Translations under genes and position numbers: made by a program
Notes under the pieces: model-generated
What the model was told of the DNA's origin: nothing
Seen by the model: the letters and a program-made list of their open reading frames with translations, nothing else
The model's database searches: none
Origin: Bdellovibrionales bacterium
GTDB lineage: Bacteria > Bdellovibrionota > UBA1018 > CAIMNF01
Direction: 5' to 3'
NCBI GenBank assembly: GCA_040380025.1
Contig: JBEIJY010000003.1
Location: forward strand, 51,130-115,129
DNA: 64,000 nucleotides
In this document: positions 9,972 to 63,904 of the stretch, one piece after another
Layout: each line of letters starts with the position of its first letter
Position numbering within the stretch: position 1 is the first letter of the stretch

Positions 9972-9989
9972 GGGCCGGTCTCAAAACAA

Positions 9990-10024
9990 AACCGCGCCCC
10001 TGGCAGCTTGCCGGGAGCGCGGTT
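9990..10024. terminator. GC-rich hairpin between convergent PLD and parB genes
   Basis: AACCGCGC...GCGCGGTT 8-bp stem. The flanking A-run on the plus strand gives a U-tract for the minus-strand transcript. Confidence 0.45.
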
Positions 10025-10045
10025 CGGGTTGAGTAATCTCTCGCG

Positions 10046-12111: not shown

Positions 12112-12232
12112 CCGGTCGCCGTGGCGACCGGTGGAGAAAATACTCTCGATGGTGTTGCGTCGGACTCAAGTCGGTCGCCGTGGCGACCGATGAAGATGGG
12201 TTACCCTGATCGGTCGCCACGGCGACCGGTGA
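12112..12232. repeat. Three copies of a 16-20 bp palindrome (CGGTCGCC-GT/AC-GGCGACCG) upstream of parA
   Basis: Copies at 12112-12131, 12171-12190 and 12211-12230 with perfect 8-9 bp inverted arms. Candidate par operator or centromere-like site. Confidence 0.6.
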
Positions 12233-12248
12233 TTTCATGGATCGCGTC

Positions 12249-13034
12249 TTACGAGCTCGCGCTCTGGTAGCGTCGCAAGCCGGCTCGCCACAAAAAGCGA
12301 ATCAGCAATCCGTAGCCTGCCAGAACCGCAAGCACGAGCGGATACACCCAGATCGAGATTTTTCCGGTCAGTACCTGGGCCGGAATCGAGCCCATGAAGG
12401 CGAAGGGTAGAGCGGTCTTCAGGAGGTATCGAATCGCTTTCGGGTAGATCGCCTCGGGTTTGTTTGCGAGCGCGTAGAGCTGATAGTAGAGGTGCGAGAC
12501 CGAGATTCCCCGCTCAAGCCAGAACACCCAGATCACAAAAAAGAACCGAAGCAGGTATTGGGTCGCAAGCCCGATCAACACCCACAGCACGAGCTCGGCC
12601 CATCCCCATCCTCCTGCGAATCCCGCCGCTGGCCCGTAGTGGTTCACGATGAAGATCCCGAGGGCGAGATTCACGATCTGCGAAAAGTTGATGTCCCGAA
12701 AGGTGGCAAGAAAAGCCGTGTTGATCGGCTTCGTGAGCAGAATGTCGAGATCCCCCTGGTTGATCATGTACGGCAGGGTCCAGAACGATCGCTGAAAGAA
12801 CGTCGTGAAGAGCGTGTCGCTACAAACAAATATGCCCAAAAAAAAGAACACCTGCTCCCGGGTCCAACCATTGATCGCCTCGGTGTTCCGGTAGATCACC
12901 TCGAAGAGGGCGAGTTCGACCACCACCCAAATCAAATCCGCAATCGTGAGCGCGATCGTGTTCGATCGATAAATGAACTCTCGCACGAGGTTGTTTTTCA
13001 GGCTGGTCAAGAACACATCCCAAAGAGTCCGCAT
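12249..13034 (-). CDS. ABC-2 family transporter permease
   Basis: Six-TM hydrophobic protein in an operon with a second permease and an ABC ATPase. Confidence 0.65.
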   Translation of the reverse strand: MRTLWDVFLTSLKNNLVREFIYRSNTIALTIADLIWVVVELALFEVIYRNTEAINGWTREQVFFFLGIFVCSDTLFTTFFQRSFWTLPYMINQGDLDILLTKPINTAFLATFRDINFSQIVNLALGIFIVNHYGPAAGFAGGWGWAELVLWVLIGLATQYLLRFFFVIWVFWLERGISVSHLYYQLYALANKPEAIYPKAIRYLLKTALPFAFMGSIPAQVLTGKISIWVYPLVLAVLAGYGLLIRFLWRAGLRRYQSASS

Positions 13035-13037
13035 GGG

Positions 13038-13850
13038 TCAGCCTCCGATTCCCTGATAACGATGAATCGCGAAGCGCCAGCTCGCATGGAGCACGCCCCA
13101 AAGCAGCAGAATCCAAAAGAACGCGATTCCCATTTGGGTTCCCCACATCGCCGCATCCCATTTGCCTGTGGCCACCTGGGTGGGGCCAAAAACGAACAAA
13201 TAAAACGGAAGCGCCTTCCAGATCAGGGCATATTGCTCGGGAACGACCGAGAGGGGAATCAGCTCGCCCGAAAGAAGACTTACGGCCATGTTCTTGACCA
13301 TGAGTACGGCGAATGCGTTCTCCCAGTAAAACGCGGCTCCGGCCAAAATCGCGCCAAACAGATACGCAATGATGTTTCCCATGAGAGCAAGCGTGAGCCC
13401 CATGAGCAGGTTTGAAAGATTCATCGACGTAAACGCCGTCGCGATCGCGCCGAGGGTGAGGCACATCCCTGCGGTGATGAGCTTCTCGCCGATGCCTTTG
13501 AAGTACGTGAACTCCACAACGCCGACGGGTCTGAGTAGATAGTTATTCAGACCCCCGGTGCGAATCAGCTCGATCAGGGTGAAGTCATGGTTCCCGCCCC
13601 GAATCTGACTGAACAGCATCGAGGTCCAGGTGTAGGCCAGGAGCTCGGCGTGGGTCATTCCTGCAAAGGTACCGCCCTCCTGACTCGAAAAAATCGAGTG
13701 CCAGAGCATGAGCTGGATTCCCACGGGGACGATCGACGAGCCGATCAGATCGAGCAAAAAATCGCCCCGATAGGCCATCGTCTCTTTGATGCCGTTCCGG
13801 ATCGCCGCGATCCTCCATTCCATTCCCCACGAAGAAAAAGCCGTCGTCAT
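13038..13850 (-). CDS. ABC-2 family transporter permease (second subunit)
   Basis: Membrane protein. Start trimmed to MTTAFSSWG, 8 nt after the ATPase stop. Confidence 0.6.
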   Translation of the reverse strand: MTTAFSSWGMEWRIAAIRNGIKETMAYRGDFLLDLIGSSIVPVGIQLMLWHSIFSSQEGGTFAGMTHAELLAYTWTSMLFSQIRGGNHDFTLIELIRTGGLNNYLLRPVGVVEFTYFKGIGEKLITAGMCLTLGAIATAFTSMNLSNLLMGLTLALMGNIIAYLFGAILAGAAFYWENAFAVLMVKNMAVSLLSGELIPLSVVPEQYALIWKALPFYLFVFGPTQVATGKWDAAMWGTQMGIAFFWILLLWGVLHASWRFAIHRYQGIGG

Positions 13851-20137: not shown

Positions 20138-20689
20138 TCAATACTTCGGTCCTAGGTCGAGCGGCCGGGTTTCCTGCCGGAGCTCTTCGAGCTCCCGCTT
20201 GCGAAGATCCTGTTCCTGCGGGCTCGCCTCGATGGCGGCTTGCGCGCGTTCCGTGATCTCGGCGGTGATCTCCGCACGGCGTACCTCGCACTCGTGCAGG
20301 GACCGGAACTCCCGGTTCTGATCGTAGGTGTAGTTCGGAATCGCGAACTCCGCAACCGGCTTCGGAAGCGCCCCGACCACCAGGACCGCATATTGCGAGC
20401 CGTAGTTCTGATGGAGCGCAGGTCCGAGATCGACCTTGATGCGTTCCACTCGGTCTTCCTCGCGACGGGCGCGATCGCACCGGATCGCCGCATGCGCTTG
20501 CTCGCACACATTCTTCAGGTCTGACAGGTTCGATTCGGTTTTCGAGATGCGGATCAGAACATACGATCCGCCGGTCTTCAGGTACAGGCGGTCGAACCAG
20601 CCCTCGCGGAACTCGCAGGCTCCTTGCGCCTGTGCGGCCGAAGCCGAAATGAAAAGTGCTGCCAACAATGCCGATCCGTACTTGCTCAT
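20138..20689 (-). CDS. Small secreted four-cysteine paralog A (type-2 subfamily)
   Basis: Signal peptide. Conserved C-x-F, LKNVCEQ...C, ECE and AQxAI motifs. RBS GGAGGAGAGG. Own AT-rich promoter element. Confidence 0.7.
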   Translation of the reverse strand: MSKYGSALLAALFISASAAQAQGACEFREGWFDRLYLKTGGSYVLIRISKTESNLSDLKNVCEQAHAAIRCDRARREEDRVERIKVDLGPALHQNYGSQYAVLVVGALPKPVAEFAIPNYTYDQNREFRSLHECEVRRAEITAEITERAQAAIEASPQEQDLRKRELEELRQETRPLDLGPKY

Positions 20690-20722
20690 GGGTTCCTCTC
20701 CTCCTTCAGAAAAGAAAGGAAC

Positions 20723-20788
20723 ATCTTGCAGAGGCTGAAAACAAGTGTCAATTATAATTTATATAATATTAGAATAAAAACTAATGGG
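20723..20788 (-). promoter_or_regulatory. Conserved AT-rich element plus TTGACA (-35) and N17 then CAAGAT promoter of paralog A
   Basis: 43-nt element tgtcaattataatttatataatattagaataaaaactaatggg is repeated nearly identically at 21877-21920 and 23036-23078. TTGACA sits at its gene-proximal end. Confidence 0.6.
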
Positions 20789-20796
20789 AGTTGCGG

Positions 20797-21252
20797 TCAG
20801 CGCAGACGCGTGCCCCATTTGCGGTCTTCGATTTGTCTTTGTTCTTCGGGACGCAGAGCGATCGCATCTTGGGCCCGTCCCGTGGCACGGATGGAAAACC
20901 ACGAGCGGTGCGTTTCGCACTCCTCGAAGGAATCGAACATGCGATTGAAACCGACCGAAGGCACGGGACCCGCGAATTGGAGGATCCATTCCGGAAGTTC
21001 CCCGACATAAAAGAGCGTGAACTCCGAGCCGGGATTCAAAACGCAATGACTGGCGCGCAGGGTTTCGTCACAGAGGTTCTTCAGGTCGCCGATGTTCTGC
21101 GGGGTTCTCGAAACCCGGATCGGAAGCGTACTGCCGTTCCCCGCGTTCAGGCGGACCGAGTAAAACGGACCCTGCGAAAAAAAACAAGCCTCCTCTGCAT
21201 TCGCAGAAAAGGCTTGCATCAATATCATTGAAACGAAAGCAAAACGAAGCAT
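20797..21252 (-). CDS. Small secreted four-cysteine paralog B (type-2 subfamily)
   Basis: Start at MLRFAF with an AAGGGGGG RBS. Shares the PEWIxQF and EECE motifs with paralog D. Co-transcribed downstream of paralog C. Confidence 0.65.
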   Translation of the reverse strand: MLRFAFVSMILMQAFSANAEEACFFSQGPFYSVRLNAGNGSTLPIRVSRTPQNIGDLKNLCDETLRASHCVLNPGSEFTLFYVGELPEWILQFAGPVPSVGFNRMFDSFEECETHRSWFSIRATGRAQDAIALRPEEQRQIEDRKWGTRLR

Positions 21253-21293
21253 GTTATCCCCCCTTTTCTTCAGATCAAGCGACACCGGAAGAA

Positions 21294-21821
21294 TCAGATT
21301 TTTCCGGGAGTCAGGCGGCGCCCCTGTTCGCGGAGCTGTTGATCGTCGCGAGCATTGGTCGAGCGAGCCTCGATCGCCTTCTGGGCGTTCTCGACCGCTT
21401 GAATGGCAACGTCGGCCCGGTGGCTTTCGCAGGCTTGCACCGAGGCGTAAGACTTACCCGCATAGCTCGGCGCGAATTGCGCGATCCACTGGTTCCGCGG
21501 ATGGAATTCATATTCGAGGGTGGCGAAGTTCTTTCCGAGATCGACATAGGTACTCGGGCCGAGATCGGAATCAATGCGCACGCTCTCGCCGGTGTAGCGG
21601 ACATGCTCGATGCACAGGACCGCCTTGAAGGTCTCATCGCAGACGGTCTTGAGTGTGTTCAGGTTCTCGTCGGTTTGTGCCACGCGAATCCCGACGTACT
21701 GGGAATCGCTCGACTGAATGTAAGAGTGGCCGAAAACCCCCGTCGAAAAATAGCAGTTCGCCTCTGCCGAAGCTCCTGCCATCATCAATGCCACTGCCAA
21801 TCCTGAAACTTGTTTGAACAT
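21294..21821 (-). CDS. Small secreted four-cysteine paralog C (type-1 subfamily)
   Basis: Start at MFKQVSGLAV with a GAGGAGAGG RBS. CYFSTG, CDETFKAVLC and ACESHR motifs. Closest to paralog E. Confidence 0.7.
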   Translation of the reverse strand: MFKQVSGLAVALMMAGASAEANCYFSTGVFGHSYIQSSDSQYVGIRVAQTDENLNTLKTVCDETFKAVLCIEHVRYTGESVRIDSDLGPSTYVDLGKNFATLEYEFHPRNQWIAQFAPSYAGKSYASVQACESHRADVAIQAVENAQKAIEARSTNARDDQQLREQGRRLTPGKI

Positions 21822-21852
21822 GATACCTCTCCTCATTTTTGAAACGACGCAG

Positions 21853-21920
21853 AATGCTTGCACGTCATGACTGGCGCGTCAATTATTATTTATAGTAAAT
21901 AAGAATAAAAACTAATGGCG
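21853..21920 (-). promoter_or_regulatory. Conserved AT-rich element plus TTGACG (-35) promoter of the C-B unit
   Basis: Second copy of the 43-nt AT-rich element, immediately upstream of paralog C. Confidence 0.55.
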
Positions 21921-21960
21921 ATCGGTCGCACGGGCTTGCGCGGGCCTTCGGCGGGGCTTA

Positions 21961-22425
21961 TTACCAGGGGCGCGCTTGATACACCGATTCCCGGATGCGT
22001 TTTTGCTCTTCGGGATTGGCCGCGATGGCGGCATGGGCGCGTTCGGTCGCAAGAATGGCGAATTCGGAGCGCGCGATCTCGCACTCTTTCTGGGAGTTCA
22101 GAAGCTGGTTCCAGCCATAGCCGAAGATCGGGTTGGTATATTGCGCGATCCATTCCGGAACAGCGTGGATGAACAACAGGGTGACTCCTGATTCTTTTGT
22201 GGGAAGGCACTCCGCGGCCTCGAGGCTCGTATTGCACACCTCTCTCAGGATCGAGCGGTTGTTATTGCTTCGGGTGACCTGGATCACGAGGAACTTCCCG
22301 TGTCCCGAGTTCAAATGAAGCGAATCGAATTGTCCGCTCGAAAAAGTGCAGCTGTCTTTGGCGTGGGCGGCCGAGGCGGTCATCGCCAACAAAATCGTAA
22401 GAACGGTTCTAGTCATTGCCAACAT
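21961..22425 (-). CDS. Small secreted four-cysteine paralog D (type-2 subfamily)
   Basis: Signal peptide, PEWIAQY and KECEIAR motifs. GGAGG RBS. Co-transcribed downstream of paralog E. Confidence 0.65.
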   Translation of the reverse strand: MLAMTRTVLTILLAMTASAAHAKDSCTFSSGQFDSLHLNSGHGKFLVIQVTRSNNNRSILREVCNTSLEAAECLPTKESGVTLLFIHAVPEWIAQYTNPIFGYGWNQLLNSQKECEIARSEFAILATERAHAAIAANPEEQKRIRESVYQARPW

Positions 22426-22455
22426 GATTTTCATCCTCCGAAAGATTCCCCGATT

Positions 22456-22980
22456 CTACCATTTGCCCGGAGTATAGAGATCGCGCCGGTCGGGTTGATT
22501 CTCGAGAGGGGACCCGCGCGCGGTGGATTCATTGTAGCGGATCGCCTTTTGTGCGATTTCGACGGTCCCGATCGCGATTCGATCCCGCTGAGCCAAGCAT
22601 GCTTCGTAAGACGCGTATTTCTTGCCGGACCAGTCATTCGGCACGAATTGCTGGATCCACTCGGGCAGATTGCTCACGCCAAGGGTCACTTCCACCAGTC
22701 CGAAGTTGGTGTATTCCTTGATGCCGAATTCCGAGGGATGACTCACGACCTGATCATAAGTACGGGTGGTGCCCTCGCACCGGACGGCCTTGTAGGTCTC
22801 GTTGCAAACGGTTTGCAAAAGGTTCTTGTTTTCGACGGTCGGTGTGATCCGGATCAGATCGTACTGGTCTTCGCTCGCGTGGATGTACTCGCCGAGGTAA
22901 CCCCCGGAGAAGTAACACTGCGCCCCGGCCGAAGAACCTGCCGCCATCATCAATGCGATTGCCGAAAATTTCTTGAACAT
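22456..22980 (-). CDS. Small secreted four-cysteine paralog E (type-1 subfamily)
   Basis: Start at MFKKFSAIAL with a GGAGAGG RBS. CYFSGG, CNETYKAVRC and ACLAQR motifs. Ends ...TPGKW (paralog C ends TPGKI). Confidence 0.7.
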   Translation of the reverse strand: MFKKFSAIALMMAAGSSAGAQCYFSGGYLGEYIHASEDQYDLIRITPTVENKNLLQTVCNETYKAVRCEGTTRTYDQVVSHPSEFGIKEYTNFGLVEVTLGVSNLPEWIQQFVPNDWSGKKYASYEACLAQRDRIAIGTVEIAQKAIRYNESTARGSPLENQPDRRDLYTPGKW

Positions 22981-23012
22981 GAACTGCCTCTCCTCTTCGT
23001 TTCGAAGTCGGC

Positions 23013-23078
23013 GCATCTTCGCACGGGCAAGGTGATGTGTCAATTATTTTTTATATGAAGTTAGAATAAAAACTGATG
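23013..23078 (-). promoter_or_regulatory. Conserved AT-rich element plus TTGACA (-35) and N17 then GAAGAT promoter of the E-D unit
   Basis: Third copy of the 43-nt element. Confidence 0.6.
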
Positions 23079-29093: not shown

Positions 29094-30092
29094 ATGAAAT
29101 ACCCAAAATCTCAGTTCTCCAAAGGGATTCGCGATCAGGACCGGATCTCCAGCCCGTTCCTCGTCAAATACAGCGCGGTTGCGACCGGAAAGACCGGCAA
29201 ACCCTACATGAACGTGGTTTTGACCGACAAAACGGGCGATGTCGAGGCGCGCATCTTCGACCAAGTGCCCCGGTATTCCTCGCAGGCCGTGAAGGACACC
29301 TTCGTGCAAGTCGAGGGTGTGGCCCAGACCTTCAACGGACGGATCCAGATTCACATCAAAGATCTCACCGTGCTCCGCGAAGACGAGGTTCAGGTCGAGG
29401 AATATCTTGCGGAGTCTTTTTTGAATGCCGACAAGCTGTATGAAGAGGTGAAGGCGATCCTCGCTTCGATGAAGGATCCGTATTACCGCGCGCTCCTCGA
29501 GTCGATCTTCATCGATGATGCCGACATCGTCGCGCGGGTGAAGCGCGCTCCCGCAGCAAAGAGTTTTCATCATGCGTATCCGGTCGGATTGCTCGAACAC
29601 GTGGTCTCGATCGCAAAAATCCTCGAATTTCTCGCGGCCCACTATGGTCCGCAGGTCGATCGCGATCTCTTGTTCGTGGGGGGATTCTTGCACGATCTCG
29701 CGAAGATCTGGGAGCTTCAGTACGACAAGGTCGTCGATTACACCATGGAGGGGCGTCTGCTCGGCCATCTCGTCATGGGTTCCGAGCTGATCGAAAAGAA
29801 GGTGCAACAGCTCGAAGCCGAAGAAGGGCGCTTGCCCGGTCCGTTCCCGGTCGAAAAGAAGCTTCTCGCGAAACACATGGTCGTCGCCCACCATGGCAAG
29901 CTCGAGTTCGGATCGCCGAAGGAGCCGGCTTGTCTGGAGGCGCTTCTGGTGCACATGATCGACGACCTCGATTCGAAAGTGAATTCCATCCGGACCTTCA
30001 TCGAGCAGGATTCCGCGCCGGGCTCGTGGACCCTGCTGCACCGGCAATATGAGCGCTATTTTTACAAGCCTGAGTGGGCGCGGAAATCATGA
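29094..30092 (+). CDS. YhaM-like OB-fold plus HD-domain 3'-5' exoribonuclease
   Basis: N-terminal OB-fold, then HD motif region (HHAYPVGLLEHV...HDLAK). Start at MKYPKSQ. Confidence 0.6.
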   Translation: MKYPKSQFSKGIRDQDRISSPFLVKYSAVATGKTGKPYMNVVLTDKTGDVEARIFDQVPRYSSQAVKDTFVQVEGVAQTFNGRIQIHIKDLTVLREDEVQVEEYLAESFLNADKLYEEVKAILASMKDPYYRALLESIFIDDADIVARVKRAPAAKSFHHAYPVGLLEHVVSIAKILEFLAAHYGPQVDRDLLFVGGFLHDLAKIWELQYDKVVDYTMEGRLLGHLVMGSELIEKKVQQLEAEEGRLPGPFPVEKKLLAKHMVVAHHGKLEFGSPKEPACLEALLVHMIDDLDSKVNSIRTFIEQDSAPGSWTLLHRQYERYFYKPEWARKS

Positions 30093-30781
30093 TCGAACCC
30101 GCTCTGGAGCGGAATCCCGTGTTGAGGGCGATCTGCGACCGGGTGAGGCGAATTCCTCCGGTTGATGCGGGCCATGACTTCGGGCATGTGCTTCGGGTGG
30201 CAAATCAGGCCGTCGCGATTTTGAGCTTTGAGACCCTCGAAGCCGAATCCAGGCCCGCTACTGCGGCCGAGATCGACGCCGTGCTTGCGGCGGCCCTTCT
30301 TCATGATTGTGTGCCGGTTCCCAAAAACTCCCCGCTCCGAAAAGAAAGCGCCCGCCTTTGCAGCGAAAAAGCCCGCGAATGGCTCTTGGAGCTGGGCTGG
30401 ACACCCGCAGAATGGATCGATCCCATCGCACAGGCGATTTTGGACCACAGCTACTCCGCGGGACGGACTCCAGAAACCCCGATCGGAAAAGCCCTGCAAG
30501 ATGCCGACCGCCTGGAGGCTTTGGGGGCGCTCGGTCTTTATCGCACGATCGCTACCGGTGTTTCGATGGGGGCGCTGTTGTTTGATCCCGAGGATCCCTG
30601 GTCGGAGCGACGCGAGCTCGACGACCGGCGGTTCACGGTGGATCATTTTTTCACCAAGCTGTTGAAGCTTCCCGCGACCTTCCAGACCCGCGCCGCGCGG
30701 GAAGAGGCCGAAAAACGCGCCCAGTTTCTTCGGGAGTTCCTCTCGGAACTCCGCCGGGAGCTCCTAAATTGCCCCCTTTGA
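30089..30781 (+). CDS. HD-domain phosphohydrolase
   Basis: GHDFGHVLRV...LLHD HD motifs. 4-nt overlap with the upstream gene. Confidence 0.65.
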   Translation: MIEPALERNPVLRAICDRVRRIPPVDAGHDFGHVLRVANQAVAILSFETLEAESRPATAAEIDAVLAAALLHDCVPVPKNSPLRKESARLCSEKAREWLLELGWTPAEWIDPIAQAILDHSYSAGRTPETPIGKALQDADRLEALGALGLYRTIATGVSMGALLFDPEDPWSERRELDDRRFTVDHFFTKLLKLPATFQTRAAREEAEKRAQFLREFLSELRRELLNCPL

Positions 30782-30805
30782 TTGCACCTGATGAAGGAAC
30801 AGGAT

Positions 30806-30926
30806 GGGGAGAGGGGGCCGGAATGATTCGATTTTTGCCGACTCTCGCGAGCGCGTGACGCGCGAAAGCGAGGCCGCACGACGCGGCTCGGAGGTAAAAA
30901 CCGAATCATTCCGGCCTCCTCTCCCC
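30806..30926 (+). ncRNA. Candidate structured RNA / cis-regulatory element, copy 1 (long outer stem enclosing a conserved 59-nt hairpin core)
   Basis: 25-bp outer stem GGGGAGAGGGGGCCGGAATGATTCG / CGAATCATTCCGGCCTCCTCTCCCC (one G-U). Core GCCGACTCTCGCGAGCGCGTGACGCGCGAAAGCGAGGCCGCACGACGCGGCTCGGAGG matches the copy at 63760-63904 at 57 of 59 positions, while the outer stems differ yet stay complementary. Confidence 0.45.
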
Positions 30927-31101
30927 GTCCCGTTCCCGAAAAAAGAGCACTCATTGGGTACAGTTCGGGAGCTCCCGCCGAGAGTTCAAACACTCTTTAC
31001 GATGCCTCAAGCCCAGATCAAATTTACGAACGGTCGGTAATTTTTCTTCAGCGCACTGCGCGAATCGTCTATAAGTGCGCGCTAAGGATTTACCCGCATC
31101 A

Positions 31102-44909: not shown

Positions 44910-46094
44910 TCATTCCGGCATTCCCTCCAGGGTGAGTTCCACCGGAATCGCACTCAGCTGATTCAGCAGGTCGAGGTTCACGGCGCCTTTTTTCAGGGCT
45001 TCGGCATCGATCCTAAGGCTCAGCTCGGCGCGATGGCGCTTGGAGTTGAGCGGCTCGGCACTCACCATCTTGTAGAGCAAAATCTGCCGGCCCCGGTCTT
45101 CGATCAGAAGCTTCGGATCGAAATCGCGGTCCGCAAGAACAAGGTCGGTCGCCATGGGACGCTTTCGGGTCAGGAGCAGATGGCCCACGAATGGCACTTC
45201 GGGTGTGCGGTCGAGCGAGAACGAGATCCGGTCGCGTCCGAGAACCCCGCCACTCATGGTCATGGTTGCGAAGTCGCGGAATTTTTGAAGGGCGATGGCG
45301 CGGATTTTGAGCTCGATCTGAAGAATTTTTTGAGTCGCGCTCAGGACCTGTTCGGTCTTCTTTTGATCCACCACCTGATAAAAATACGAGCTGGAGTTCG
45401 TCTTCAGCACGATTTTTTCGCCCTGCAAAGTCGCCGTGATCGTCTCTTGCAGAGGTCCCTGCTCCCGAAAATCGGCGAACTTCACGCTCACCGAGGCCAC
45501 GGTATGGAGCTTCAGGTTCCGGCCTGCCGCCACCTGAACCGGCTTTTGGCAGGTGTAGGGGACTTGCACCACATTCGGTACGCTCTGGCACACTTGGCGA
45601 GCCACATTTTGGCAGATGGTCTCGGGGTAGTTCGAACACTGATAGCGTTGCTCGTTCCGGCAGACCTGGTCGATCCGGGTCTGACACTGGTTGATGGTCT
45701 GGCAGATGTTCCGGGGCACCTGCACGCATCCGTTCATGTTGCACACGCGGTCCATCACGGTCCGACAAACCTGCTGAGGAAAGCACACGTTTCGCGGAAT
45801 GTTCTGGCACACCGGAAAGTTCTGATACGAGCACTGCTGGCGATACTCGGTCCGGCAGACGCGATCGTTCTGGGTCTGGCACTCCTGGCGCGTGCCCTGC
45901 ACCTCGCTCCGATAGCAGGTCTCGTTCACGTATTCGGTGCGATAAATGGTCTCGTATTCTTTAGACTCGAGATCGAACTGCTGGGTTTCTTGATTCAGCG
46001 AAAAGTCGCGCGCGGACGGAAGATCGGTTTCGGCCTGGGCGGGGAGGGCCCCTCCCAGGAACAAGAACAGCAGAGTCGGGACGAGGTGATTCAT
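44910..46094 (-). CDS. Secreted protein with about 15 tandem cysteine octad repeats (C-x7-C)
   Basis: Signal peptide. CQTQNDRVCRTEYRQQCSYQNFPVCQNIPRNVCFPQQVCRTVMDRVC... Each roughly 8-9 aa unit is Cys-Gln/Arg-x5-Val/Ile. Confidence 0.6.
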   Translation of the reverse strand: MNHLVPTLLFLFLGGALPAQAETDLPSARDFSLNQETQQFDLESKEYETIYRTEYVNETCYRSEVQGTRQECQTQNDRVCRTEYRQQCSYQNFPVCQNIPRNVCFPQQVCRTVMDRVCNMNGCVQVPRNICQTINQCQTRIDQVCRNEQRYQCSNYPETICQNVARQVCQSVPNVVQVPYTCQKPVQVAAGRNLKLHTVASVSVKFADFREQGPLQETITATLQGEKIVLKTNSSSYFYQVVDQKKTEQVLSATQKILQIELKIRAIALQKFRDFATMTMSGGVLGRDRISFSLDRTPEVPFVGHLLLTRKRPMATDLVLADRDFDPKLLIEDRGRQILLYKMVSAEPLNSKRHRAELSLRIDAEALKKGAVNLDLLNQLSAIPVELTLEGMPE

Positions 46095-55940: not shown

Positions 55941-57108
55941 TTACCTGCTGATCGGAACCGGAGCCGCTCCCTTGCTTGCGGCGCAGAAGCTCACCGCGCG
56001 GGGGGATTCGGTGATGATCCTGAATCCTGATTCTGATTTTTTTCTCGAGAACTCCGAGCTCTCCCTCGATCTTCTGAGCTTTGAATCGAATACGACCGAC
56101 CTGAGCCGGCGCTTCGCCAACAATTTTCCCGAGCAGGTGTACCGCGACTTGATTCCCGAATTCCCGGGAGCGGTCGAGATCGCGCGCGAAGAAGACCTGC
56201 GTCGTTCCGCAGGACCGTATCAGGTCGCAGAGGCGCCGTGGATCCGCTCGCGGCACCGGCTCTGGGTCGCTCCCGAGCGCGGCGTGGCCCGTGATCGTCT
56301 CGAGGTGTTGTATCTTCGTGCGCTCGATCTCGGTCTGAAGCCCCAGTGGCTCGAGGGACTTCCGCTCGCGAAGCGGTTTCCCGGATTTTCGTTTCGCGAT
56401 GTCGAGTCCCGCAATCTCGACGGCTGGGTCGGGTTTGTCGGTCCCCGGCTCGGAGACATCGATGTCTCGCGCTATCGCACGGGGCTGCTCGAGTTCGTGC
56501 GCGAGCGACTCGGTCGCGAGAATGTCATGACGGGCGTGCATCTTCTGAACGCCGACCAGAAAGGCGTGCGGTTTCAAAAAAGCGAGGGTCTGCCGAAGAA
56601 CATCGAGGTCGGTCGCGCGGTGCTCTTTTTCTGGACCCCGAAGCTCGATCGCATGCTCCGGCAAAATCTCGAGCGGCATTTTCCCCGCGGGCTCAAGGCG
56701 TATCAGGAGTCCGCCTCGCTTCAGCGTTGGGAGGAGTGGGATCTCCTCTCGCGCGATCCTGTGAATCCGTTTTTGGTCGCGCATCTCGAGCGGGTGCGGA
56801 TCTGGGCGCACGGCGAGGGACCGCCCCCCGCGGCCGGTTGGAACCAGATCAAGGTGATGATGCGCGAGAAGTCCGATACCTGGGTCGATCAGGAGTCGTT
56901 CGACGAGCTCTCGCGCCTGGTGTTCCAGTTCATGGGTTGGGATCGCTTCACGGTTCGCAAGATGACTCCGAGGGCCTTGTACCGCTGGAACGGAATGACG
57001 CCGATCGAATACGAAACAGGCGGGCTCCGCACGCTGATCATTCCCTCCTGCGACGGGCCCTTGCACTGGATCGCAGGTCAGGTCCGAAAGACGATTGACG
57101 GGGTTTAG
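55924..57108 (+). CDS. FAD/NAD(P)-binding Rossmann-fold protein
   Basis: DYLLIGTGAAPLLAAQKL...VMILNPDSD beta-alpha-beta dinucleotide-binding motif. Confidence 0.55.
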   Translation: MKLRVDYLLIGTGAAPLLAAQKLTARGDSVMILNPDSDFFLENSELSLDLLSFESNTTDLSRRFANNFPEQVYRDLIPEFPGAVEIAREEDLRRSAGPYQVAEAPWIRSRHRLWVAPERGVARDRLEVLYLRALDLGLKPQWLEGLPLAKRFPGFSFRDVESRNLDGWVGFVGPRLGDIDVSRYRTGLLEFVRERLGRENVMTGVHLLNADQKGVRFQKSEGLPKNIEVGRAVLFFWTPKLDRMLRQNLERHFPRGLKAYQESASLQRWEEWDLLSRDPVNPFLVAHLERVRIWAHGEGPPPAAGWNQIKVMMREKSDTWVDQESFDELSRLVFQFMGWDRFTVRKMTPRALYRWNGMTPIEYETGGLRTLIIPSCDGPLHWIAGQVRKTIDGV

Positions 57109-63759: not shown

Positions 63760-63904
63760 GGAATCCTCTTTGAGCCAGGGCCGGCACATAAAAAGAGGGT
63801 TCGCCTCCGAGCCGCGTCCTGCGGCCTCGCTTTCGCGCATCACGCGCTCGCGAGAGTCGGCAACCCCTCTTTTGATGTGCCGGCCCTGACTCAAAGAGGA
63901 TTCC
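63760..63904 (-). ncRNA. Candidate structured RNA / cis-regulatory element, copy 2
   Basis: 40-bp outer stem (GGAATCCTCTTTGAG...AAAAGAGGG / CCCCTCTTTT...CAAAGAGGATTCC) enclosing the same 59-nt core as copy 1. Same orientation relative to the downstream (minus-strand) gene. Confidence 0.45.

Follow-up and report, generated by a model that had tools for sequence, protein, structure and literature searches.

Two intergenic hairpins in a 64,000-nucleotide stretch of Bdellovibrionales DNA, hereafter the window, share a nearly identical centre enclosed by stems that look unrelated in sequence, raising the question of whether they represent a structured RNA peculiar to this genome or copies of a repeat that has spread by transposition. 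The preliminary description favoured the former, reading the pair as a candidate functional RNA or cis-regulatory element whose outer stems covary between copies. The shared core that it reported is confirmed: a core pattern of 58-60 nt has exactly two matches in the window, one per copy and on opposite strands (Table 1), the same pattern was matched in 0 of 100 dinucleotide-preserving shuffles, and the cores of copy 1 and copy 2 are 97% identical across 60 nt. Both differences between them lie where they had been placed; one (C/T) falls in the GCGCG-UGA-CGCGC hairpin and exchanges a G-C for a G-U pair, and the other (C/G) is inside the loop of the GCCGC-ANGAC-GCGGC hairpin.

In both copies a long hairpin carries the core at its tip, and folding, which had been proposed as a check, returned very stable structures for both, with minimum free energies of -98.5 kcal/mol for copy 1 and -112.4 kcal/mol for copy 2 (z = -12.1 and -12.9 against shuffles), versus -90.8 and -99.6 kcal/mol for the respective antisense strands. 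When the 62-nt core is folded alone, its stability is not significant against shuffles (z = -1.0 for copy 1 and -1.4 for copy 2). The hairpin elements are real, however the units originally reported were too small, copy 1 having a full length of 202 bp and the span listed for copy 2 being a minimum.

Table 1. Coordinates of the two element copies, their parts, and an empty insertion site in the window.
Feature	Position	Strand	Basis
Copy 1, full-length MITE of 202 bp	30765..30966	+	length fits the 201-203 bp family unit (near-identical pair L028/L036); duplication at both borders
Left target-site duplication of copy 1 (GGGAGCTCC)	30756..30764	.	identical 9-mer at 30967-30975; geometry as in L028 and L036
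Right target-site duplication of copy 1 (GGGAGCTCC)	30967..30975	.	same 9-mer as left
Left TIR of copy 1 (AAATTGCCCCCTTTGATTGCACCTG), degenerate	30766..30790	+	family consensus AACTGGCCCCTTTGAATGGGCATGG; ORF end; homologues terminate at the same point
Right TIR of copy 1 (end ...GCACTCATTGGGTACAGTT), degenerate	30941..30965	+	by-eye alignment to family right end CCATGCCCAYTCAAAGRGGCCAGTT
Inner left arm of copy 1	30806..30836	+	fold pairs this arm with 30896-30926; resembles arm of L008 1457
Inner right arm of copy 1	30896..30926	+	fold
Apical core of copy 1: three-way junction with helices P1, P2, P2a, P2b and P3	30832..30901	+	covariance model 83.6 bits, E = 2e-23; exact pattern; covariation
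Invariant sequence within copy 1 core	30837-30894	+	exact pattern match
Copy 2, short form, 145 bp	63760..63904 (at least)	-	inverted repeat with 46-nt arms, 91% complementary; fold; flank comparison
Apical core of copy 2	63797..63866	-	covariance model 79.4 bits; exact pattern at 63804-63861
Empty site	13028..13042	.	between two tightly packed genes; BLAST blocks and three-way alignment

The core is not confined to the window. A scan of 185,579 species-representative genomes with the pattern GAAAGCGAGGCCGCNNNNNGCGGCTCGG produced 17 matches distributed over 16 stretches, all of which belong to three MAGs with the label Bdellovibrionales bacterium, and a looser core pattern identified 22 matching stretches among metagenome contigs (freshwater), most of them from one sample. 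One of the loci collected, L022, was discarded as a chance pattern match inside a coding region. A covariance model was built from 20 copies and searched against the window and 38 loci (given below as L numbers) with a cut-off of E < 1e-3, identifying 49 copies, namely the two in the window and 47 from Bdellovibrionales MAGs and freshwater metagenomes; the notion of a private, two-copy RNA is not upheld by this result. Within the window, the model found no copies beyond the two known, weak matches at 56396-56463 and 45414-45481 being rejected as coding-looking sequence without hairpins, and a relaxed search of the window for the termini found nothing. Searches of viral contigs and of plasmids gave no match, and a phage or plasmid origin was rejected on that ground. 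Neither Rfam nor the literature searched contained the family.

Comparison of the copies reveals the architecture of a transposon. Full-length copies end in the inverted repeat AACTGGCCYCTTTGARTGGGCATGG ... CCATGCCCAYTCAAAGRGGCCAGTT, with AACTGGCCYCTTTGARTGGGCATGG and its complement located at both ends of L035, L038, L031, L036, L028, L023, L018, L025 and both L008 copies, and the terminal inverted repeat (TIR) of the family is a conserved 25-bp inverted repeat, AACTGGCCCCTTTGARTGGGCATGG. The full-length unit is approximately 200 bp (201-203 bp in L028, L036 and copy 1) and is a hairpin throughout, leaving no space for a transposase ORF. Aligning 14 full copies with MAFFT yields a consensus over the whole length, in which conservation is 0.77-0.89 at the termini and 0.9-1.0 in the core, with values of 0.44-0.7 between them; in folds of 308-nt stretches the hairpins extend 110-230 nt, with arms clustering at ~70-75 nt per side. 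The copies at L028 4134-4334 and L036 9926-10126 share 97.5% identity over ~201 nt within unrelated flanks, and both are bordered by 9-bp direct repeats (TATCAGCTT and GCATATTGC). Flanking direct repeats of at least 6 nt occur in 4 of the 12 TIR-bearing copies (9, 9, 7 and 6 nt), in comparison to 1.6% of mismatched flank pairs, the duplication of L031 being 7 bp and that of L008 1247 being 6 bp when counted as exact (8 of 9 by eye). Target-site duplications were also looked for in older copies, where they are not recognisable.

Insertion of the element differs between related genomes. A copy is present in a related metagenome contig (L037 1567-1759) where the window (Table 1) and L003 are empty, and L003 and L009 carry a copy at a position where the window, at ~9985-10030, has only a plain terminator-like hairpin. 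This GC-rich hairpin, AACCGCGCCCC...GGGAGCGCGGTT, occupies 9985-10030 downstream of a gene end. The orientation of the element relative to the gene that follows, reported to be the same in both copies, is indeed the same for the two in the window, however it is mixed across the family: by crude longest-ORF gene calls, the gene on the 5′ side lies on the element strand in 22 cases and on the opposite strand in 21, and the gene on the 3′ side in 16 and 25 cases, respectively. By the same crude calls, the genes around the copies are arranged in tandem in 21 cases, convergently in 10 and divergently in 4.

Miniature inverted-repeat elements of bacteria (MITEs) are defined by TIRs, target duplications, a small size of generally under 200-400 bp, the lack of a transposase gene, and long stem-loops at the RNA level (PMC3184786). 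The family described here resembles known bacterial MITEs, such as Correia/NEMIS of Neisseria and RUP of Streptococcus pneumoniae, in being small, bounded by TIRs and duplications, dispersed between genes and free of a transposase gene, as well as in the stem-loop formed by the whole element and in insertions that extend or replace gene 3′ ends (PMC3184786). Among these precedents, the bcr1 element of the Bacillus cereus group shows compensatory changes, and the extension of gene 3′ ends is likewise on record (PMC3184786). The bcr1 repeat is also MITE-like, with direct repeats at its flanks and a distribution that differs between related strains, but it is ~155 bp long with 5-bp direct repeats, belongs to another phylum and has no sequence similarity to the present family; its transcription has been shown, whereas the family here is known from sequence. 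Unlike usual MITEs, the present elements have a 9-bp duplication and hypervariable mid-arms, and their best-conserved part is an apical three-way junction of 55 nt. Correia elements duplicate TA.

Both window elements are best explained as belonging to a MITE, a non-autonomous DNA transposon ~200 bp long, which spread within a single clade of Bdellovibrionales; we regard this as highly probable. Its architecture consists of ~25-bp TIRs, a variable self-complementary middle, a conserved apical three-way junction and 9-bp target duplications. The preliminary description had called the pattern the opposite of that seen in MITEs; instead, the family has dispersed copies with 25-bp TIRs, 9-bp duplications and mixed orientation, the very features which that description had itself listed as marks of a mobile repeat, and in addition filled and empty sites. 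The elements form a new family of a common type, with the apical core as the one feature deserving follow-up. Mobilisation would depend on a transposase encoded elsewhere that binds the TIRs and cuts with a 9-bp stagger; the ~270 kb of fetched DNA contained no autonomous element with the same termini, and no orphan termini or IS-sized repeats. Against the MITE case stand the lack of a recognisable duplication at copy 2, the flanks of which were inspected for one, and the degenerate termini and individually ambiguous duplication of copy 1. In addition, cut-and-paste transposition alone does not explain the strong conservation of the centre.

Adjacent pairs of copies in opposite orientation are common (L008 1183-1590, L001 5030-5440 and L014 3130-3740), which points to insertion beside existing copies or recombination between copies as the source of such pairs and clusters. 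The L008 pair consists of two full copies ~10 nt apart, the first flanked by TAAATCTCTT and TAAATCACTT, and L014 contains three cores together with a local duplication of ~230 nt at a site where REEB465 (L005) is without any. Two other interpretations of these loci were discarded. An inversion of the core between its arms, considered for L001 versus L014, was rejected as the alignment and the covariance model show clustered copies in both orientations and the ~230-nt L014 duplication; an inverted target duplication on insertion, considered for L014 versus L001 and L005, was rejected as the L014 arm is homologous to the arms of other copies and hence a half-deleted remnant rather than an empty site. 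At this remnant (L014 ~1880-1934) only the right half persists, with the left arm and core deleted, and the full copies are found at L001 6643-6869 and L005 2647-2847.

Frequent inverted adjacent pairs, as at L008, L001 and L014, and dispersed intergenic palindromes are also typical of REP/BIME/REPIN repeats, so that mobilisation of a REP-type repeat by a RAYT (HUH) transposase was considered. REPs are 20-40 bp long and carry a GTAG or CGTC tag at one end (PMC3733652). The present units are instead ~200 bp, carry no GTAG/CGTC tag, and possess the long TIRs and 9-bp duplications that REPs do not have. An origin of this type is extremely improbable; single-strand transposition by HUH enzymes is not known to generate such target duplications.

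In the window, copy 1 represents a genuine insertion and copy 2 a short variant of the element. The 9-mer duplicated at the borders of copy 1 is nearly palindromic and, taken alone, might instead be a prolongation of the inverted repeat; this near-palindromy is the reason that an 88-nt inverted repeat is detected at copy 1. The left border lies within an ORF of the 116-kb source contig, at 30074-30781, which encodes an HD-domain protein (PF01966; P0001) whose homologues terminate in ...QLKRE(L/I) followed by 0-4 residues. The left duplicated 9-mer encodes the conserved R-E-L near the end of this protein, and the left TIR contributes the last five codons (LNCPL) and the TGA stop codon (30779-30781) to the gene, without which insertion the frame would continue for 22 codons. 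Copy 1 thereby illustrates how a MITE can rewrite the end of a gene, both its C-terminus and its stop codon. On the other side, the ORF of the PAS histidine kinase (31075) is ~110 nt downstream of the right end of copy 1. A scan detected no promoter-like site in or beside copy 1, and a terminator role was dismissed, as neither window copy is followed by a T-run and the terminator-like sites found by the scan are outside the element. The Logan contig ERR9973196_290407 (L039), assembled independently, carries the same HD-domain gene and ends 68 nt past it, inside the element, which suggests that the repeat breaks short-read assemblies. The family can now be annotated in Bdellovibrionales MAGs, where its copies would also account for breaks in assemblies.

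The outer stems had been described as unrelated in sequence yet each almost perfectly self-complementary, and this was taken as the signature of a functional RNA. When compared in the same register, the arms of copy 1 and copy 2 cannot be aligned over their inner 30 nt (identities of 0.57 and 0.50, against 0.50 for shuffled 30-mers), and across the family the median identity of arms between copies is 0.53 against 0.50 for random sequence, whereas the complementarity of the two arms within a copy is 0.77. The stems are not unrelated, however: the family terminal motif CCYCTTTGAKT is found in both window copies, and GGAATGATTCGATTTT, the copy 1 inner arm, matches an arm of L008 1457. This motif lies ~58 nt from the core in copy 1 and ~30 nt from it in copy 2, which has the TIR-like motif CCTCTTTGAGTCAGGGCCGGCAC at the same ~30 nt, and the short and long forms of the element differ by symmetric loss from both arms. 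Mismatches in the arms across the family are about equally G-U and A-C (117 versus 97), and sense and antisense folding energies across the family have no consistent difference; the complementarity of the arms is therefore not evidence for a sense-strand RNA helix. A palindromic MITE yields stems that are self-complementary and appear unrelated, which is not by itself RNA covariation, and the corrective value of the present comparison is that an apparently private covarying RNA proves to be a transposon family.

In copies at the same locus in different genomes, partner changes in arm pairs are correlated (odds ratio 3.2, p = 1.7e-5), with 24 of 35 double changes keeping the pairing, L012 versus L017 being a clear example. 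These correlated changes fit selection for the hairpin, hairpin-templated correction of quasi-palindromes, as known in other systems, or replacement by gene conversion from other copies. They can also be accommodated if the importance of the hairpin and core is restricted to the element itself or to DNA metabolism, with no RNA function for the host. Palindromy would then be maintained via intrastrand template switching or hairpin-directed repair, and the core would persist because transposition is restricted to lineages in which it is intact, its role being, for example, that of a nucleation point or of a site for the transposase or a host factor. The correlation of arm changes in the absence of strand bias, the excess of complementarity within a copy over likeness between copies (0.77 versus 0.53, random 0.50), and the symmetric loss from both arms in short forms are all consistent with a role limited to the element, which we consider a possibility of some weight, although the balance of evidence leans away from it for reasons found in the core.

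The core presents conserved structure and real covariation, and this part of the original proposal stands. Among 46 distinct copies, 95.2% of pair cells in the core are standard, and 14 of the 21 core pairs have changes on both sides. Compensatory cells number 119; shuffling the columns leaves 35 ± 4, and sliding the partners by 1-3 columns leaves 8-23, all of these being counts of cells and not of independent events. The covariation score, which refers to the 69-nt core alone, is 0.337, compared with 0.099 for shuffled and 0.038-0.077 for slid controls. Covariation is present in all five helices. P1 occurs in variants such as GGCC/GGCC, GGTC/GACC and AGCC/GGCT, P2 changes from CUCGC/GCGAG to CUUGC/GCAAG, P2a, the short helix joining P2 to P2b, covaries, P2b is represented by several unrelated stems among the copies, and P3 changes from GCCGC/GCGGC to GCGGC/GCCGC. 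The unpaired bases of the core are the most conserved, including GACT (45/46), GA (44/46) and GAAA (37/46), as well as the 3′ junction nGGAG (42/46) and a P3 loop of AGGAC or AGGAT (36/46); the P2b loop contains GGA in most copies and GUGAY in one whole subfamily. In the divergent copy at L024 3373-3442, P1, P2 and P3 are all rewritten while both AGGAU loops and the junction bases are retained.

Strand preference and rate of change distinguish the core from the arms. G-U outnumbers A-C in the core helices by 27 to 7, indicating that one strand is the folded one. In six pairs of copies at the same locus, 16 of 416 positions changed in the core, 130 of 840 in the arms and 274 of 2195 in the flanks, which include coding sequence, so that the rate of change in the core is approximately one third of that in its flanks. 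This difference suggests that the core is under purifying selection in place or evolves in concert; gene conversion between copies could mimic such selection. With its covarying stems, near-invariant junction and loop bases, excess of G-U over A-C and slower change, the core is constrained as a folded single strand with a defined polarity. The slower change at a fixed locus points to constraint after insertion and the wobble bias to one functional strand, which a duplex DNA site would not give; both weigh against a significance of the core for the element alone.

The same core covariation and the wobble bias toward one strand, along with sense folds that are more stable than antisense folds in both window copies, would also be anticipated if the element were a free-standing structured RNA or cis-regulatory leader, that is, a host RNA gene or 5′ leader with an outer stem covarying under selection for RNA structure. 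This is highly improbable given the TIRs, 9-bp duplications and insertion polymorphism, the mixed orientation relative to neighbouring genes, arms that have no G-U excess (117 versus 97) and no consistent difference between sense and antisense energies across the family, and the lack of both a promoter-like site in or beside copy 1 and an Rfam family. Comparison with Rfam, suggested at the outset, gave no match at gathering level anywhere in the window. A relaxed search of the element returned only generic long-hairpin miRNA models on both strands and PrrB_RsmZ, all below threshold; at window positions 30772-30961, both strands score 45-49 bits to the plant miRNA precursors MIR1437 and MIR1858 (gathering thresholds 137-168; MIR1437 49 versus 168). 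Such scores on both strands show that these models are drawn to any long near-perfect hairpin. A self-cleaving ribozyme or other known RNA was likewise rejected, having no Rfam match at the gathering or relaxed level and, on inspection, a junction unlike the hammerhead core or a kink-turn.

If the element is a MITE, as favoured here, the remaining question concerns what its core does. Most likely, a copy co-transcribed with a neighbouring gene would form a long RNA hairpin whose tip would present the core to a protein; alternatively, the folded core may be required for the element's own propagation. Repeats of the CsrB RNA have the consensus CAGGA(U/C/A)G, and the core offers a candidate geometry for CsrA, with CAGGAY in two hairpin loops ~25 nt apart followed by an invariant GGAG. 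GGA displayed in a hairpin loop is recognised by CsrA, which in the hag leader binds two stem-loops of this type, and the CsrA of B. bacteriovorus is functional, with targets that are largely unknown (PMC13443453). The core could accordingly be seen as a protein-binding RNA module carried on the MITE, most specifically as a candidate two-site CsrA/RsmA-type element, which is compatible with the transposon reading and concerns only the role of the core. The conservation of GGA in the P3 loop, in the P2b loop of most copies and in the nGGAG junction agrees with this, as does the retention of both AGGAU loops in the divergent L024 copy despite three rewritten stems. As in CsrB/RsmZ RNAs and CsrA-bound leaders, the (C)AGGA(Y) hairpin loops of the core appear to be spaced in a manner suiting a CsrA dimer, with GGAG in addition.

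Several observations make such a binding module rather unlikely. Neither loop of copy 1 contains GGA (the loops being UGA and ACGAC), copy 2 has GGA in the P3 loop only, and a whole subfamily has GUGAY in P2b; moreover, about half of the copies are antisense to the transcription of their neighbours, and the invariant junction bases other than GGA would be left unexplained. The PrrB_RsmZ model scores 16.9 bits against a gathering threshold of 44 (E = 5.5), and, unlike CsrB/RsmZ RNAs, the core has no significant Rfam match, is embedded in a transposon and comes without its own promoter or terminator. A simple search for the N-terminal motif of CsrA found no CsrA gene in the ~270 kb of fetched DNA, too little DNA for the result to be informative. 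That the core is a functional RNA module of two CAGGAY loops plus GGAG, forming a putative site for CsrA or another global RNA-binding protein, is on the whole improbable. If true, sites or decoys for a regulator would be spread by transposition across the transcriptome of these relatives of Bdellovibrio, and the hypervariable but always complementary arms would be merely a stalk holding the module out. Because its stems covary, its loops and junctions are invariant and a single strand is functional, the core is a tractable system for asking whether MITEs disseminate RNA modules that bind proteins. Integron attC sites are also imperfect palindromes in which structure is conserved over sequence and which act as a folded single strand of one polarity. 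They differ from the present family in being conserved at their outer ends with a variable centre, and in being arrayed in cassettes beside an integrase, while the elements here are dispersed with target duplications.

The window contains two further sets of short repeats. A 42-nt AT-rich motif occurs in three copies (86% identical to the reference) at 20745-20786, 21876-21917 and 23037-23078, within a GC-rich region, each copy being located just upstream of a member of a tandem array of about five paralogous genes (157-195 aa) on the minus strand at 20138-23043. By eye, the proteins of this array begin with signal-peptide-like sequences and contain conserved cysteines. Read on the gene strand, the motif terminates in TTGACA, and it probably represents a promoter common to the array, with an AT-rich element upstream. 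The palindrome CGGTCGCCGTGGCGACCG is present in three copies at 12113-12235, spaced by 59 and 39 nt, which coincide with a break in the alignment to L003 (window 12190-12253); it may be a second, REP-like hairpin repeat.
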